From assembly GCA_964491305.1 (NCBI GenBank), contig CAZBGG010000001.1, positions 1-36,016 on the forward strand: a stretch of DNA of 36,016 nucleotides, written 5' to 3'. Position 1 is the stretch's first letter; each line of letters starts with the position of its first letter. Made by a program: the position numbers and the translations under genes. A model generated the notes under the pieces. It saw only the letters and a list, made by a program, of their open reading frames with translations, was not told the DNA's origin and ran no database searches. This stretch comes from an uncultured Methanosarcinales archaeon. Its GTDB lineage: Archaea; Nanobdellota; Nanobdellia; Woesearchaeales; DSVV01. This document shows positions 29,258 through 35,378 of the stretch, piece by piece.

Positions 29258-29443
29258 TCATAATCGTTCCTGGATTACCCTTTCATAAGTTCCTTGGCTG
29301 TTTTCACAAGGTGCTCCATGCATGGAACAAATATTGCTGCAACAACCAAGATGTGCCGGTCCTTTTAGATGGTTACACACAACCAATCTATCCTCACTAT
29401 CTTCAAAAATTCCCTTACATATCTTACACTTTAATTTTGCCAT
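29258..29443 (-). CDS. Small Cys/His-rich (zinc-binding-like) protein
   Basis: MAKLKCKICKGIFEDSEDRLVVCNHLKGPAHLGCCSNICSMHGAPCENSQ. I start it at the ATG at 29443 rather than the track start at 29467. Confidence 0.4.
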   Translation of the reverse strand: MAKLKCKICKGIFEDSEDRLVVCNHLKGPAHLGCCSNICSMHGAPCENSQGTYERVIQERL

Positions 29444-29619
29444 CTTACACCTCTTTTTTATAAACATTTTTCAAAACTTTTTTTCCTATTAAAGCACAAC
29501 GTTCTATTTAAATTTTTTGAGGGAATCCTTTTAATTCCAGTAAATACATAGGCTAAGACCAGTAAGAAAACATATTGCACAAATTAAATATTAAATACTA
29601 GCAAAACATTCGGGCGTTT

Positions 29620-30198
29620 ATGAGCCTAAAAAAAGAAGTAAGGATAATTGGTATAGATGATGTACCATTCGACAAGTTCAAAGATCTTCAAACAAAAATT
29701 TTTGGTGTTATTTACAGGGGGGGATACTTTATGGAGGGCGTAGTTTCAGAGACCATCAATGTTGATGGAAGCGATTCGACTGAAAAGATTATAAAGATGA
29801 TAAAAGGTTCCAGATTTTATAAACAAATAAAGTATATTATGCTTGATGGCATAGCAGTTGGGGGATTCAACATAATTGAAGTTAGTAAACTTAGCAGAGA
29901 AACAAATAGAGGAGTGGTTGTTGTAATGAGAAAAAAGCCAGGACTGAAAAAGATTAGAAATACCCTTGATAAATTAGGTATGCAAGATAAGATCTCACTA
30001 TTACAAGGGATAGGGAGAATACACGAGATTAATATGGATAAGGGCATTTTATTTTTTCAGAACTACGGAATAAAAAGAGAAACAGCCGAGGGCTTGTTAA
30101 AAATCACATGCACCAATTCTTTGATACCCGAACCAATAAGAGTTGCACACATAATGGGAAAAGGAATCACCACAGGAGAAAGTAAAGGCTCTGGCTAG
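29620..30198 (+). CDS. DUF99/UPF0215 family protein (endonuclease-V-like fold)
   Basis: VRIIGIDDVPF...GVVSETINVDGSDSTEKIIKMIKGSRFYKQIKYIMLDGIAVGGFNIIEVSKLSRETNRGVVVVMRKKP closely follows the archaeal UPF0215 pattern as I recall it. Confidence 0.7.
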   Translation: MSLKKEVRIIGIDDVPFDKFKDLQTKIFGVIYRGGYFMEGVVSETINVDGSDSTEKIIKMIKGSRFYKQIKYIMLDGIAVGGFNIIEVSKLSRETNRGVVVVMRKKPGLKKIRNTLDKLGMQDKISLLQGIGRIHEINMDKGILFFQNYGIKRETAEGLLKITCTNSLIPEPIRVAHIMGKGITTGESKGSG

Positions 30199-30740
30199 TT
30201 TTTGAAGATAGTAAACCTGTCCCCGCTAATTATAAATTCATTCTTTTTTTCAAGATTTCTCGGGAAAAATTCTTCGCCATGAACTATAAGCTCTCCTCTT
30301 AGCTCTTTTTTTAGCTTGGAATCAAGGTCATCCCTAAAGAAAGGTTTATCAGGGCTTATATAAATTACTTCGTATCCAGACAAATCATGTTCAAGGTAAT
30401 TCTTTTGCAAAAATTTAGTATTCTTAAAATGGGGAATTGATAGCTTTAGCCTTTGTTGCATGGCCACGTTGATTAAATCGTTATCTATCTCAATTCCATG
30501 ACTTTTAACAAAAAAAAGTGAGGCCAGTAAAACAACTCTCCCATCGCCAGCACCAAGGTCAACAAAAGAACTCCTGTGTTGGAGATTTATTTTTCTAAAA
30601 AGCTCAAATAAGCCATCGACAGGAGTTGCACCCCAGTAACCAATTCCTGTGTCTTTTACAGGAAGTATTCCACTTTTCAATAAATCATTTATGTAGTCAT
30701 CGTAAGTACTCTTAATTTTTTTGAAATGGTGGGAATTCAT
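30195..30740 (-). CDS. Class I SAM-dependent methyltransferase
   Basis: FVDLGAGDGRVVLLAS is motif I and SHGIEID is the motif II acidic residue. I prefer the ATG at 30740, which forms an ATGA overlap with the stop of the upstream TIM-barrel gene. The track start at 30770 is also possible. Confidence 0.7.
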   Translation of the reverse strand: MNSHHFKKIKSTYDDYINDLLKSGILPVKDTGIGYWGATPVDGLFELFRKINLQHRSSFVDLGAGDGRVVLLASLFFVKSHGIEIDNDLINVAMQQRLKLSIPHFKNTKFLQKNYLEHDLSGYEVIYISPDKPFFRDDLDSKLKKELRGELIVHGEEFFPRNLEKKNEFIISGDRFTIFKN

Positions 30741-32851
30741 TCGAAAGGAACCTCGCTCCAAAGTTTCCATTCATTCGAAGGAACATAGCTTCCAAATGCA
30801 AAATACGGGCTTTGTACCTGAGGGAAATAACCATTTTTCACATTCGCAAAAGAAGGGTTTGGAGCTGCAGCCCCATATCCGCCAATGGTTGAACCAAAGT
30901 GTTTCCAGGTTTCAGTCAATATCCTACCTTGTCCAAAAAGACTTTCTTCCCCATGAGCTTCTGAGACAATTGTTCCTTTATATCCTTTCTCCTTTAGATG
31001 CTCCAAGGCTTCATAAAGAGGAAGATTCCCCTGTCCCGCTGGAAGATGATGATGTCCTGAACCCATGGAATCAACCAAATGCATATGACCAATTACTTCT
31101 GCATCCTGCATTTTTTCTATCATTTTTTTGTACCACTTATTAAACCTCTCTCTTCTTTGATCATATGTTTCTCCTTCAAGAGGCTGGAAGTTTTTCCACC
31201 ACATGCCTAAGTGTTGGGTATCAACAGTAGCTTTTATGTGCTCTTTTGCCTCCTTATTAGCCTCGTTCTTTGATAGACCCCTATAGTGAGGATTTATTCT
31301 TTTCTCAGTTTCACCAGTGGCAGGATCATATTCCTCAATATATTTTGACGTAAGACGCTCAACCATTTTATCCCTAGCATTACTAACAAGCTCGATCATC
31401 TCCTCAGGGTGTGAACCATAACCCATCTCTGGAAAGATATTCTCCGGAGCTATAAAAATAGGTTTCTCAATATCCTTCCTTTTGCTTTCCTCCATAGCCT
31501 CGATACCTAACTCAGCATAACTTTCCATAGACTTCCTCTTGGCATAGTCACCAATGGGCTCCATAGTATTAAGTTTCATCTCCGCTTCCTTAGCGTTTGT
31601 GGTATAGGAAGAAGAAAGTGCTGCTATTTCCTTTCTCTGACTAATCAAGTCAGCCTCAACTTCTCTTTCAAGAAATTCAGAAGGTTTCATCCCCTCCTTT
31701 TTTATGGCTTCAGATATCTTCTCTTGATCCAGGCTTTGAGGAAACTCTGAATAAAATGAACTAAGCAGTCCTATCTTTTGCTCATCACTTAAATTATCCT
31801 CATCGATGCCTCTAAAATATTCTTTCCTTTTTTTAACATTCTCAAGCTGTTTTTCAACCTGATCATAGTTCCTTGAATAGTGATAAGAAAGACCTTTACT
31901 CTGATTAATCTGGGTCTTAAACTTGGTACGCATAAACATCTCAGCAGGGGTCATTTTTTTACCCTCTTTATTATGCTGGTTATATTCGTCTGCCATCCTT
32001 TTGAAATCTTCCCACTTCAAAGGTCTTGTTTTGAAGGCTTCATCTTCACCATTTGTTTCTGGAACACCCTTGTCAAAGACTTCATACTCATGTATTGGAT
32101 TTCCGTGACCATCGATATACTGGCCTTTCTCGTTTTTTTTATAATCCGCCTCGTAGACCACCATATTTTTTCTTACATCTTGAATAAGACTTCCGGTGCG
32201 GCTGTCCACAAGATAATGCGCCTGGTTTTTGTACTCGTCCGGATAGGAGAGAAATTCATAGATGTTACCTTGCTCATCCTTTACAGCCCTCTCCTTATCT
32301 TTACCTTGAATAGTCACCGGCTTTTCATTCCATTCCATATCCGACATATCCCTCCAATATTCACCCGTATGAACAACAACAGCCCCTCCTTTAGTAACAT
32401 CAGACGCAAACTTTATGGCTTTTTTTATCTCTTCTACACTCTCTGCCCTTTGTTGGTCACTAAAACCTTGTTGTGGATTAAAACCTGATAAATTGCCTAT
32501 ATTTGTCGGGGCATGGACAGAGGTAAATTCAACCTGGTTCACTTTTGATAGCTCCCTTAATGCTTGCCTAGCATCGTGGCCATAATTTTCGGCCCCCACA
32601 GGCTCTCCCCCTCCTCCTTGGCCCACCTGAAGCTCAATTTTAGCAGCACCGGTTTTTATGGCGTTCTGTGAAGTCTGAATAAGGCTGCCAAAACGAGCCC
32701 CCTCCGTTACAGTTTGTCCTAAGTCACGTATACCTATAGGGGCCTCAACTTTTTCTTCAGGTGAGCCTCCAGAATATTGTCCCCAGTAGCCAGAGGAGTC
32801 AACAAAATAGTTCCCTCTATGAGGGGGGACATATCTAACATAGTCTGTCAT
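30737..32851 (-). CDS. Xylose-isomerase-like / AP-endonuclease-2-type TIM-barrel protein interrupted by an insertion of about 300 aa
   Basis: The barrel motifs are in the right order: KIELQ, FTSVHAP, AVVVHTGE, then (after about 300 aa) IFIAPEN, VDTQHLGMW, IGHMHLVDS, GHHHLPAGQGNLP and GTIVSEAHG. This call rests on pattern recall, not on a search. Confidence 0.6.
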   Translation of the reverse strand: MTDYVRYVPPHRGNYFVDSSGYWGQYSGGSPEEKVEAPIGIRDLGQTVTEGARFGSLIQTSQNAIKTGAAKIELQVGQGGGGEPVGAENYGHDARQALRELSKVNQVEFTSVHAPTNIGNLSGFNPQQGFSDQQRAESVEEIKKAIKFASDVTKGGAVVVHTGEYWRDMSDMEWNEKPVTIQGKDKERAVKDEQGNIYEFLSYPDEYKNQAHYLVDSRTGSLIQDVRKNMVVYEADYKKNEKGQYIDGHGNPIHEYEVFDKGVPETNGEDEAFKTRPLKWEDFKRMADEYNQHNKEGKKMTPAEMFMRTKFKTQINQSKGLSYHYSRNYDQVEKQLENVKKRKEYFRGIDEDNLSDEQKIGLLSSFYSEFPQSLDQEKISEAIKKEGMKPSEFLEREVEADLISQRKEIAALSSSYTTNAKEAEMKLNTMEPIGDYAKRKSMESYAELGIEAMEESKRKDIEKPIFIAPENIFPEMGYGSHPEEMIELVSNARDKMVERLTSKYIEEYDPATGETEKRINPHYRGLSKNEANKEAKEHIKATVDTQHLGMWWKNFQPLEGETYDQRRERFNKWYKKMIEKMQDAEVIGHMHLVDSMGSGHHHLPAGQGNLPLYEALEHLKEKGYKGTIVSEAHGEESLFGQGRILTETWKHFGSTIGGYGAAAPNPSFANVKNGYFPQVQSPYFAFGSYVPSNEWKLWSEVPFE

Positions 32852-32892
32852 GGGCTAGAAACTCCTTTATTGATTTATAAATTTTTTGAAAA

Positions 32893-33420
32893 TCAATCAT
32901 TATAGAACCTAGACAGGTAACTCCCTCTCAAATCTTTCATTAATTTTCTAGTGCTAAAAGCAATATCTTTTATTTCTTCATTTGGCAAATATGTTTCTTT
33001 ATTGATTATTTCATTATATATTTCCTCTGCCCTGTACACATTTGCATAATCATTAGACCTCTCCTGTACAATTTCCCTAAGCTCAGTATATAATCCAGAA
33101 ACCTGCTCCAAAGAATCTTTGTAAGAGGGAGGTATATCTTTCTCCTCATTGACATCTGAACGCCTAACACCTTCCTCGAGAGTAGATTCAATTTCTTCTC
33201 TTCTTGAGCTTGCCTCTTCCAAAAGATGCTCTTCTGGAATCCTGTCCTCAAGATTAATCTCATTTATCGTTTCCTCGATTAATTTCTTTGTCTCTTCCTC
33301 TTCTTTTTTCCTAGCTTTCTCTATCTCGTTTATCTTTTCAATCCTCTCTTCCGGTGGAAGCTTTTTCAATTCCCTTAGAATCTCTTCCCGCGGAAGCTTA
33401 ATTAATTTTTCCAAGTCCAT
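32893..33420 (-). CDS. Glu/Lys-rich coiled-coil protein (175 aa), function unknown
   Basis: Heptad-like charged sequence. The ATG lies 1 nt after the stop of the upstream 521-aa gene. Confidence 0.5.
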   Translation of the reverse strand: MDLEKLIKLPREEILRELKKLPPEERIEKINEIEKARKKEEEETKKLIEETINEINLEDRIPEEHLLEEASSRREEIESTLEEGVRRSDVNEEKDIPPSYKDSLEQVSGLYTELREIVQERSNDYANVYRAEEIYNEIINKETYLPNEEIKDIAFSTRKLMKDLRGSYLSRFYND

Positions 33421-33421
33421 C

Positions 33422-34987
33422 TTACCAAGCTAACATCCCATGAGCTTTTTTGAAATTTTTATAAACCTGCCACGTTGATCTTATTGCATTGTTCTTTGCA
33501 ATTTGCTCTTCACTTCCAATTAGCACAGGATTAGGACCCTTTTTCTTAGAACTTCCTTTAAAAGGATCATAAAGAACTTCTTTAAACCCATACATGGCTG
33601 CAACAAAAGGGTCTTTGTTTTTCCAGGCCTCTAGCTTACTTTTCTCTTGTTTCTTTTCAGGAGGTTCCTTTGGGTATTCCAAGTTGGTATTTTCTTCTCC
33701 AGCCTCCTCAAGATATCTTTCCAATTCCTCACCTAAAGAATCCATAGCAGCTTTGACACTGCCATCCACCTCAGAAACAACCTCCATATCTTCTTTTTCT
33801 TTTGCTTTCACATAGTCCCTAATTTTTTCATCATCCCAAGCATAAGCCCTGATAGTTACATCGGCTTTACCTATATGCAGAGGACCACGCTGATACTCGG
33901 TCATATAATTCATTTGGGGCTTCGTACGATGATTAATCGTGAGTATAATTACAGAATTAATGTGCTGATTCCAGCTCATCTTCTTACTCTCCCCATGGCT
34001 GGGAGGTTTTTTGTAAAATACATTTTCTATCTCAACCATTGAACCCTCAAAAGCAGAGACCATATCCGGACTTTTGGTCCTATCGGCCATCGTAAGCCTC
34101 CTTAAATTATTAAGATAAGGTTTAAGCCAAGAATTATACATTTTTATAACATTATAATGTTGCCTAAGGTACTTTAGTGTAAAACGTCTCCTATTCTTCA
34201 TCTCATAGTATGTGGTTTCTTTCCATTGCATAAAATTCCTTAATTTTCTTTTTAAGACTTCCCCAACCTTTTCATTAGGTTTAAGCCTATCTACTTCACT
34301 ATCTATTTCTGATATGCTCTTTGGATTTACTGAAAAGAAATAATCGGGCAATGTAGTAAAATTTAGCTCCCTTGCCATGCCATATACAGATGCTGGATTT
34401 TTTGGGCCCTGCTCAACCTGATCAATCCAAATACCTTTCAAAACAATTTCTGCACTTTGCCTAGATTTTGAATCAGCATTCCAACTATCTTCATAATATC
34501 CCACTCTCTCATCTATAATTCTTAATTCCCTGATTATCTGGAATAGCTCTTTGACCATTTTTCCAATTGTAGCAAGATACATTGATACTTTCTCCTGTTG
34601 CATGCCCAAACGCTGTTGAGAATTCCCAAACATGGAGCTGTGTTCACTTGCACTAAAAATATCATTCACTTTCTCTATATTAGGAAAACCTTCACTAACA
34701 GAAATATTGTCAACAAGCCAATAGTATATTTCTTCAGCTGACTTGTTGAAATCTTCAAGCACAAACTTATACCTATGAATCGGCGCAGGGTAGCCCGTTT
34801 TGCCCTCCACAAAGTTACCTACATTATCCCTGGCAGCTTCAACTACCTCTTCGTCGAGTTTATGCTTTTCAAGAAACTCCTTAATACTTTGTGTTGCCAA
34901 TGTATGCCTATAAACGCTTGAATCATTTATATTATTTTCGCTTATTATAGAAAACTGCCGTAAAACCAACAACAAAAACCAACTCAC
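33422..34987 (-). CDS. Large conserved-looking hypothetical protein (about 490-521 aa), mostly helical, no recognisable motif
   Basis: Long ORF of normal composition. The track's GTG start at 34987 overlaps the YhbY-like gene by 56 nt. A TTG at 34900 (MATQSIKEFLEKHK) would remove the overlap. Confidence 0.55.
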   Translation of the reverse strand: MSWFLLLVLRQFSIISENNINDSSVYRHTLATQSIKEFLEKHKLDEEVVEAARDNVGNFVEGKTGYPAPIHRYKFVLEDFNKSAEEIYYWLVDNISVSEGFPNIEKVNDIFSASEHSSMFGNSQQRLGMQQEKVSMYLATIGKMVKELFQIIRELRIIDERVGYYEDSWNADSKSRQSAEIVLKGIWIDQVEQGPKNPASVYGMARELNFTTLPDYFFSVNPKSISEIDSEVDRLKPNEKVGEVLKRKLRNFMQWKETTYYEMKNRRRFTLKYLRQHYNVIKMYNSWLKPYLNNLRRLTMADRTKSPDMVSAFEGSMVEIENVFYKKPPSHGESKKMSWNQHINSVIILTINHRTKPQMNYMTEYQRGPLHIGKADVTIRAYAWDDEKIRDYVKAKEKEDMEVVSEVDGSVKAAMDSLGEELERYLEEAGEENTNLEYPKEPPEKKQEKSKLEAWKNKDPFVAAMYGFKEVLYDPFKGSSKKKGPNPVLIGSEEQIAKNNAIRSTWQVYKNFKKAHGMLAW

Positions 34988-35186
34988 TTGCTGTCAGACG
35001 GGCAATTTCTGAAGCCATACCCTTCAAATCCGTCTGAATTGAATTTTTCAGAAACTTTACTTTGACCAATTTTCTCTTTTTTAAATGTTTTTTTATCTCA
35101 TCAATCAAAGAATCATTTAAACCCGATTTCCCCACTCTAACCAACGGTTTCAGGTTTTTGGCTTCCTTCTTTATGCTCGAATCCAT
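34932..35186 (-). CDS. YhbY/CRS1 (CRM-domain) RNA-binding protein
   Basis: KKEAKNLKPLVRVGKSGLNDSLIDEIKKHLKKRKLVKVKFLKN matches the L-K-P-x-V-x-(I/V)-GK-x-G-(L/V)...E-(L/I)-(I/V)-KVK pattern of YhbY. Confidence 0.75.
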   Translation of the reverse strand: MDSSIKKEAKNLKPLVRVGKSGLNDSLIDEIKKHLKKRKLVKVKFLKNSIQTDLKGMASEIARLTASELVFVVGFTAVFYNKRK

Positions 35187-35378
35187 TTTAATCTTTTAAG
35201 TCAGATCATACCATTTGTGGTGGTCGATTTTCCACTGAGTTCTAATAATAAGCACATTAATTCTCCATTAATAACAACTATTATAAAAAGCTTTAATTTT
35301 AAGATTAGAAATTAATGACAACCTAAACAGAAAACAAAATACAAACCCTCTATCAAAAATACTCAATAAAAATATTCA

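Follow-up and report, generated by a model that had tools for sequence, protein, structure and literature searches.

A string of five genes was studied on contig CAZBGG010000001.1 (assembly GCA_964491305.1) of a Woesearchaeales genome. The window, i.e., the whole stretch of DNA that was analyzed, covers 36,016 nucleotides (nt), and the string lies on its minus strand at positions 30195-35186. In the direction of transcription, it encodes a YhbY-like protein with a CRM domain, an orphan protein of 492 amino acids (aa) designated big492, a small charged protein, a TIM-barrel enzyme split by a large insertion, and a class-I S-adenosylmethionine (SAM) methyltransferase (Table 1). The conserved unit is composed of three of these genes, i.e., big492, the small charged protein, and the split barrel (the triad). 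The other two genes, for YhbY and the methyltransferase, are facultative neighbors, frequent and order-specific. A preliminary description, made from the DNA letters, had treated all five genes as one unit, which holds for the triad and not for the two genes that flank it.

The same description had reported five minus-strand open reading frames (ORFs) with near-zero or overlapping junctions, and all coordinates and junctions were found as given there. In order, the junctions are 31 nt (YhbY/big492), 1 nt (big492/small protein), 41 nt (small protein/barrel), and an ATGA, i.e., 4-nt, overlap (barrel/methyltransferase). For big492, a 521-aa ORF overlapping YhbY and a shorter version with a TTG start had both been considered. 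Because the homologs are 475-510 aa long and the public gene call is 492 aa, the start is probably TTG at 34900, which leaves the 31-nt gap after YhbY. The family alignment also starts near this codon. The N-terminus of the methyltransferase family aligns to Met11 of the ORF, and therefore the true start was placed at ATG 30740, which bears out the ATGA overlap with the barrel stop codon.

Table 1. Features of the five-gene string and its immediate surroundings in the window.
Feature	Position	Strand	Description
YhbY/CRM gene	34932-35186	minus	84 aa, isoelectric point (pI) 10.3; PF01985
big492	ORF 33422-34987, likely gene 33422-34900	minus	492-aa orphan; no Pfam domain
Small charged protein	32893-33420	minus	175 aa, acidic, helical, pI 4.7
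Split TIM barrel	30737-32851	minus	704 aa; PF01261, endonuclease-IV/MJ1311-like
Barrel insertion	31466-32356	minus	about 297 residues, aa 166-462
Class-I SAM methyltransferase	30195-30740	minus	181 aa from ATG at 30740; PF08123 DOT1
Endo_dU/DUF99 (endonuclease dU)	29620-30198	plus	PF01949, 177 bits
A+T-rich intergenic region upstream of YhbY	35187-35378	minus	TATA-like TTTTTATAAT, read from sequence

The shared strand, the short or overlapping junctions, and the conserved linkage are those expected of an operon, and the string was regarded as a predicted transcription unit. Close packing by itself is ordinary in a compact genome of 36% GC; it is the conservation that exceeds chance. The A+T-rich region upstream of YhbY, with its TATA-like sequence, is a candidate operon promoter. 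TATA-like sequences were also seen inside the string, i.e., ATATAAAT in 34901-34931 (minus), approximately 27 nt before the big492 TTG, and TTTATAAA in 32852-32892 (minus), approximately 28 nt before the barrel ATG, with a GGAG approximately 12 nt upstream of the barrel gene. Because these boxes precede the big492 and barrel genes, internal promoters or leaderless starts are possible within the putative operon.

Transmembrane segments were absent from all five proteins. A mobile or viral origin of the cluster was rejected: no PHROG matches were found, the composition resembles the rest of the window, and the distribution is vertical.

Distribution and linkage of the triad

The Nanoarchaeota, i.e., Woesearchaeales, Pacearchaeales, Nanoarchaeales, and others, are abundant symbionts, nearly all of them uncultivated, and their genomes measure 0.5-1.8 Mb. 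More than 1298 homologs of big492 were collected, all annotated as 'hypothetical' and lacking a Pfam domain, and the named sources were Woesearchaeota, Nanoarchaeota, or Nanobdellota. By whole-genome search, big492 was detected in 294 of the 301 high-quality phylum genomes that were examined, representing 221 of 225 genera. Nearly all of them have one copy, and even genomes of 0.5 Mb retain it. An exhaustive hidden Markov model (HMM) search of 1.84 billion representatives returned only 654 clusters at E<=1e-3, and thus the family is lineage-restricted. The barrel was present in 244 of the 301 genomes at E<=1e-20; diverged copies adjoin big492 in orders that this threshold missed.

Many Nanoarchaeota-type contigs (L024, L027, L029, and others) carry the title 'uncultured Methanosarcinales archaeon', and one (L073) is titled 'Aminicenantes bacterium'. 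These off-phylum titles look like labelling or binning errors rather than real occurrence outside the phylum.

Same-strand linkage recurs, with the internal gene order permuted, in over 90 families of the class. The linkage was counted in 80 loci from species-representative genomes, where each denominator is the number of loci with enough flank for the gene concerned. On the same strand, the barrel gene follows big492 within 6 kb in 43/57 loci and within 1.2 kb in 38/57. A homolog of the small charged protein was found on the same strand within 6 kb of big492 in 58/71 loci. It precedes the barrel in 21 loci and follows it in 21, and since this order is permuted while the cluster is kept, selection on clustering is indicated beyond inherited order alone. 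YhbY lies within 400 nt upstream of big492 in 41/75 loci, and the methyltransferase is downstream of big492 on the same strand in 24/51. In this genome and in many Woesearchaeales, the module stands within a co-directional, translationally coupled string. In this genome, YhbY is upstream of it and the methyltransferase downstream. The preliminary description had proposed synteny of the cassette in other genomes as a check, and it was found in many; the triad is kept together in distant orders as well.

The distant orders were represented by 14 genomes in which big492 is 20-28% identical to the window copy. A diverged barrel follows big492 directly on the same strand in 11 of the 14 by HMM, and in one more it was read by eye. 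This last case, genome G248, has a 690-aa ORF with HAP and NMHAGD motifs after big492, which the first barrel profile missed; the deep-homolog profile matched it at E=1.5e-146, a profile that was built with this ORF included. A protein of 150-225 aa with 35-45% charged residues follows big492 and precedes the barrel in 10/14. YhbY was adjacent to big492 in none of the 14 loci. A weak methyltransferase match (E=2.8e-5) was seen in one of them (L121), approximately 4 kb downstream of the barrel. Overall, the distribution of the methyltransferase family is patchy (23/101 genomes).

One genome (G059), which we take to be Nanoarchaeum equitans, encodes a 497-aa diverged big492 homolog (L129 6036-7529, plus strand) between a CBS-domain protein and FEN-1. 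This homolog has a Lys/Glu low-complexity stretch. A barrel homolog was found in a 713-aa frame (G059:C1:185985-186638, minus strand), approximately 105 kb from big492. The unlinked retention of both large genes is as expected for a scrambled genome.

Such clustering could also be nothing more than inherited gene order in a compact genome without functional coupling, especially for YhbY, the methyltransferase, and Endo_dU. Two unrelated upstream genes, for the Kef-type exchanger and the NAD(P)HX dehydratase, are conserved about as often, all five genes occur together in just 11 of the 48 loci with full flanks, and in several genomes big492 and the barrel are unlinked. However, the triad stays linked across orders at 20-28% protein identity, its internal order is permuted without dispersal, and both large genes are retained even in genomes of 0.49-0.6 Mb. 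Inherited order as the whole explanation was therefore considered very unlikely, and the triad is very probably a functionally linked module.

The module is conserved about as well as DNA ligase. Between the window genome and a 1.84-Mb Woesearchaeota genome, big492 is 51% and the barrel 47% identical; the same pair gave 55% for DNA ligase, 60% for topoisomerase I, 61% for the DRG GTPase, and 38% for the Kef exchanger. Yet the public annotations read 'hypothetical' and 'sugar phosphate isomerase'. Present as a single copy in approximately 98% of the phylum genomes, including the 0.49-Mb genome of N. equitans, the module is probably central to the biology of these organisms.

The split barrel and its metal site

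The barrel protein matched PF01261 with 61.2 bits (cut-off 31.1) in two stretches flanking the insertion. The earlier label of a split TIM barrel was thus right about a barrel in two pieces and too generic, since a metal-ligand set of the endonuclease-IV/MJ1311 type is present. The AlphaFold2 model has a mean predicted local distance difference test score (pLDDT) of 83.6 and a predicted TM-score (pTM) of 0.81, with residues 1-35 and 657-704 disordered. Its (beta/alpha)8 fold was recognized by Foldseek with probability 1.00 to 3wqo, 6wn6, 4q7i, 3aal, and others. The matches, which cover the barrel part only, include MJ1311 (3wqo, TMt 0.71), YcjR, D-tagatose 3-epimerases, UlaE, and several endonuclease IV structures.

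By profile comparison (E=7.5e-10), the barrel is nearest to MJ1311 of Methanocaldococcus jannaschii. MJ1311 gave the best profile match and a top structural match, and the motifs VVVHxG, HxHDN.G..D.HL..G.GN, and IE are shared. In contrast to the window protein, MJ1311 is compact (approximately 290 aa) and lacks the insertion, the aromatic tails, and known partner genes. Its structure (PDB 3WQO) was deposited as 'D-tagatose 3-epimerase-like protein', and it has been listed as a predicted endonuclease IV homolog (PMC2770678). Because the function of MJ1311 is itself unknown, the relationship does not explain the function of the barrel.

In the model, the insertion is located between strand beta4 and helix alpha4 and forms beta-hairpins plus a helical bundle, at pLDDT of approximately 85-97. 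It is kept in all full-length homologs, which cover 95-100% of the query, and begins 2-5 residues after the beta4 ligands. The beta4 end of a TIM barrel belongs to the catalytic face, and because of this placement the insertion would be expected to act as a lid. No relatives were found in PDB or Pfam by a profile of the insertion only. Both disordered tails are aromatic-rich. The C-terminal tail is strongly conserved, with P682, G687, Y689, P691, S692, W698, and E704 invariant, and a tail that is disordered in the model yet holds invariant residues has the pattern typical of a docking peptide.

The motifs S/T-x-H-A/G-P, V/N-x-H, x-E-N, and D-x-x-H are common to the window protein and its deepest homologs. 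They also share H-x-x-D-N-F-G-x-x-D/H-x-H-L-x-x-G-x-G-N and a conserved Glu in the last strand. When the insertion-deleted barrel cores were aligned by MAFFT with Escherichia coli Nfo (MG1655 record, L104), seven of the nine Nfo metal ligands fell in conserved columns, i.e., H69, H109, D179, H182, H216, D229, and H231. At the D229 position, Asp is found in five of six deep homologs, and His in the remaining one (L114) and in the window protein; His takes this place in Woesearchaeales barrels. All nine endonuclease IV ligand positions were judged to be retained in the family, by a mapping that is motif-based.

Endonuclease IV (Nfo; E. coli b2159, Thermotoga maritima 2X7V/4HNO, Geobacillus kaustophilus 3AAL) resembles the barrel in its PF01261 superfamily, its aligned ligands, and its Foldseek matches. 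However, endonuclease IV is a compact single domain of approximately 285 aa, whereas the barrel protein has 704 aa and a 297-residue insertion on the catalytic face. Motifs like those of the Nfo DNA-recognition loops were not seen in the barrel.

The public annotation as 'sugar phosphate isomerase/epimerase' points to another reading. The barrel would then be a metabolic enzyme that acts on a small molecule, a sugar or ketose epimerase or isomerase similar to D-tagatose 3-epimerase, UlaE, or YcjR, and its partners would be unrelated or scaffolding. Structures of all three types are among the Foldseek matches, and the barrel shares with the ketose 3-epimerases the fold and the E-D-H-E metal ligands, which are common to the whole superfamily. 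However, the extra His, His, and DxH ligands of endonuclease IV and MJ1311 are kept class-wide. The D-x-H...G-x-G-N block is shared with MJ1311 and is missing from UlaE. Ketose 3-epimerases are not known to carry the two extra His ligands. The NCBIfam equivalog models for epimerases and isomerases scored far below their cut-offs (NF007360, 25.8 vs. 305; TIGR03234, 15.4 vs. 353). A universal single-copy gene with two non-enzymatic partners, in genomes with almost no sugar metabolism, would also be unusual for a catabolic epimerase. The epimerase reading is thus distinctly improbable. The ligand set suggests a phosphoesterase and not a sugar isomerase, and phosphoesterase chemistry was taken as the probable one for the barrel.

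Two further PF01261 genes were found in the same genome. A compact endonuclease-IV/MJ1311-like gene on contig C191 (L106:3-635, plus strand) encodes at least 210 aa and is cut by the contig end. With the motifs HAP, FHPE, IEN, LDFSH, and VHFS, it has a nearly full ligand set, in which the D229/H231 block was unaligned, and it probably encodes an ordinary apurinic/apyrimidinic (AP) endonuclease. On contig C9 (L107:1138-2769, minus strand), a 543-aa Trm5/TYW2-like class-I methyltransferase is interrupted by a PF01261-type barrel (33 bits, above the cut-off), so that the genome has two chimeric barrel genes.

Partner proteins and flanking genes

The AlphaFold2 model of big492 has a pLDDT of 76 and a pTM of 0.54. 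It starts with an N-terminal alpha-beta-beta-beta-alpha unit and one strand. A highly conserved loop, FxASEQSSFFGxAQQRLGLQQ, is poorly modelled. It is followed by two helices of great length (91-140 and 210-270), a sheet of three strands (288-356), and C-terminal helices. Foldseek searches of PDB and BFVD gave no match at E<0.001. Neither the protein, nor 50 close members, nor 21 deep members gave a significant relative in Pfam, NCBIfam, or PHROGs, and profile searches of PDB were without significant match even with the deep 21-member profile. These results fit the remark in the preliminary description that the protein has no recognizable motif. Resemblances to DivIVA, DUF5751, START, Cyt-toxin, and levivirus maturation protein were dismissed as noise (all E>1e-3, TM-scores of approximately 0.1). 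The family is mildly basic (median pI 8.8) and has a conserved aromatic/Lys C-terminus, W..YKNFKK..GML.W.

The small protein gave no match in Pfam, NCBIfam, or PHROG. Thus the 521-aa ORF and the 175-aa protein resolve into no characterized family. The two outcomes that the preliminary description had named as contrary to its proposal, i.e., lack of synteny elsewhere and unknowns that turn into known families, were both absent.

A further reading, with which the C-terminus of big492 is in line, is a membrane or lipid scaffold. Here big492 would bind lipids or the membrane periphery and recruit a phosphodiesterase to remodel host-derived lipids. Very weak Foldseek resemblance to START, Cyt-toxin, BAR, and ClyA folds (E 0.1-0.6) and weak DivIVA-like coiled-coil matches in 18 of 50 big492 members would also agree with it. 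Phospholipase C, which has a different fold, likewise uses trinuclear-zinc chemistry. However, none of these matches was significant. Membrane targeting by the C-terminus was rejected, because the last 18 residues have a hydrophobic moment of just 0.29 and the protein lacks transmembrane segments; signal peptides were also lacking. A lipid role is extremely improbable.

The gene upstream of big492 clearly encodes a CRM-domain protein. It matched PF01985 with 78.2 bits (cut-off 27), residues 5-80 aligning to profile positions 9-83 of 84, and is single-copy in the genome (a single tblastn match). Compared with the YhbY/CRM ribosome-assembly factor, it scored below the bacterial equivalog cut-off (TIGR00253, 62 bits vs. 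78.5). No role of YhbY in archaea was found.

The methyltransferase matched PF08123 DOT1 with 32.6 bits (cut-off 23), over profile positions 24-88 of 205 only. Against NF041081, an archaeal protein-lysine methyltransferase, it scored 24.5 bits (cut-off 200). Its PDB matches were a Dot1-type H3K79 enzyme (9ne1, E 7.7e-5) and Sulfolobus aKMT (5fa8, 5jwj), with E of 8e-5 to 3e-3, and SAM motif I reads DLGAGDG. The aKMT/Dot1 enzymes are thus the best PDB and Pfam matches, but the likeness is weak and partial (E 1e-4 to 1e-8). On this weak evidence, a protein-lysine methyltransferase seems more likely than an RNA methyltransferase. The preliminary description had counted two RNA-associated members in the string. 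YhbY can be kept as one, and since the methyltransferase resembles protein-lysine enzymes, YhbY is the only one.

This bears on the function that had been guessed for the cluster, i.e., RNA or ribosome processing. In that reading, the module would act with YhbY on rRNA or another RNA, and the barrel would be an RNA end-processing or cleavage enzyme. In 41 of the 75 Woesearchaeales loci, YhbY directly precedes big492, and its stop codon often overlaps the start codon that follows. It is also the only YhbY of the genome. Genes for NFACT-R and TYW3 are found repeatedly in the surrounding region, and big492 is mildly basic. However, the adjacency is confined to one order, and in the other orders YhbY is lacking beside big492 though the triad is present. 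The methyltransferase looks like a protein-lysine type, and neither big492 nor the small protein nor the insertion has a detectable RNA-binding domain. As the idea draws on the adjacency of YhbY alone, a role in RNA or ribosome processing stays a guess and an unlikely one.

One version of it, in which the module is a protein-only substitute for RNase P, was rejected, because of 61 module-carrying genomes 57 also have RNase P RNA. N. equitans, which is without RNase P, still has the big492 and barrel genes.

A proposed phosphoesterase complex

The reading that we prefer is that the triad is an ancient module of three genes, inherited vertically within the class Nanoarchaeia (Nanobdellota/Nanoarchaeota, DPANN), and that it forms a lineage-specific heteromeric phosphoesterase complex. 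As a whole, this explanation is given about an even chance. The three core products would assemble in the cytoplasm. As catalytic subunit of the complex, the barrel would be a metal-dependent phosphoesterase with an endonuclease-IV-type and probably trinuclear site, and the inserted domain may serve as a lid that redefines the substrate. The basic big492 and the acidic small protein would be non-catalytic subunits for scaffolding, specificity, or regulation. These partners may dock through the conserved, disordered aromatic tails of the barrel. Among substrate classes, a nucleic-acid phosphodiester or a 3'-blocked end appears most likely, and a nucleic acid as substrate is proposed tentatively, at somewhat less than an even chance.

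Several observations weigh against this explanation. The equivalents of E145 and E261, i.e., the x-E-N motif and the conserved Glu, were identified by motif reading only. No significant match was obtained when the barrel family, its halves, or the insertion-deleted core was compared by hhalign with the single E. coli Nfo, and consequently the endonuclease IV assignment rests on the motifs, the MAFFT alignment, and MJ1311. The best structural neighbors include sugar epimerases. The barrel family is acidic (median pI 5.7), which lends no support to nucleic-acid binding. Because the compact endonuclease-IV-like gene is also present, the 704-aa protein need not be an ordinary AP endonuclease. In addition, big492 and the barrel are unlinked in N. 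equitans and in genomes G085, G298, G299, and G113. Part of the wider synteny is probably inherited order, since the unrelated Kef exchanger and NAD(P)HX dehydratase are also conserved upstream.

A bolder form of the proposal sees the triad as a phylum-defining machine that is essential for the cell biology of Nanoarchaeota. It would be composed of a new-fold subunit, a charged adaptor, and an endonuclease-IV-derived trinuclear-metal phosphoesterase, on which the inserted lid would confer a substrate that differs from those of all known members of the family. This form is rather unlikely. A possible role of such a machine is to process or scavenge nucleic acids that biosynthetically deficient symbionts obtain from their hosts.

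No published description of the module was found in the literature. A 2026 preprint on Nanobdellota mentions unnamed 'uncharacterized' phylum-specific marker proteins. The present analysis adds the five-gene context, the synteny in deep orders, the N. equitans copies, the Asp at the D229 position in most deep-order homologs, the patchiness of the methyltransferase, and the RNase P test. The role of the module, once worked out, would explain a lineage-specific essential function and show what the MJ1311 branch of the endonuclease IV superfamily does. It would also characterize a protein family without PDB relatives. Three cultivated Nanoarchaeota co-cultures make the module testable.

Of the genes around the string, Endo_dU corresponds to the DUF99 endonuclease-like gene that had been described as converging on its 3' end. 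It is convergent with the methyltransferase gene, with a 4-nt overlap. It was adjacent in only 1 of the 80 loci, i.e., in the closest relative (L025), and is an incidental neighbor outside the module. A Cys-rich 69-aa ORF (29258-29467, minus strand) sits between Endo_dU and a 360-aa protein without family match, and showed a weak Prok-RING_1 match below the cut-off (E 9e-4). On the other side, the wider upstream neighborhood in Woesearchaeales (L025-L103) contains a Kef-type Na+/H+ exchanger with TrkA_N in 45/80 loci, NAD(P)HX dehydratase in 36/80, and NFACT-R in 17/80. In the window, two pilin-like genes lie upstream of the cluster in place of the exchanger, which was found on contig C19.

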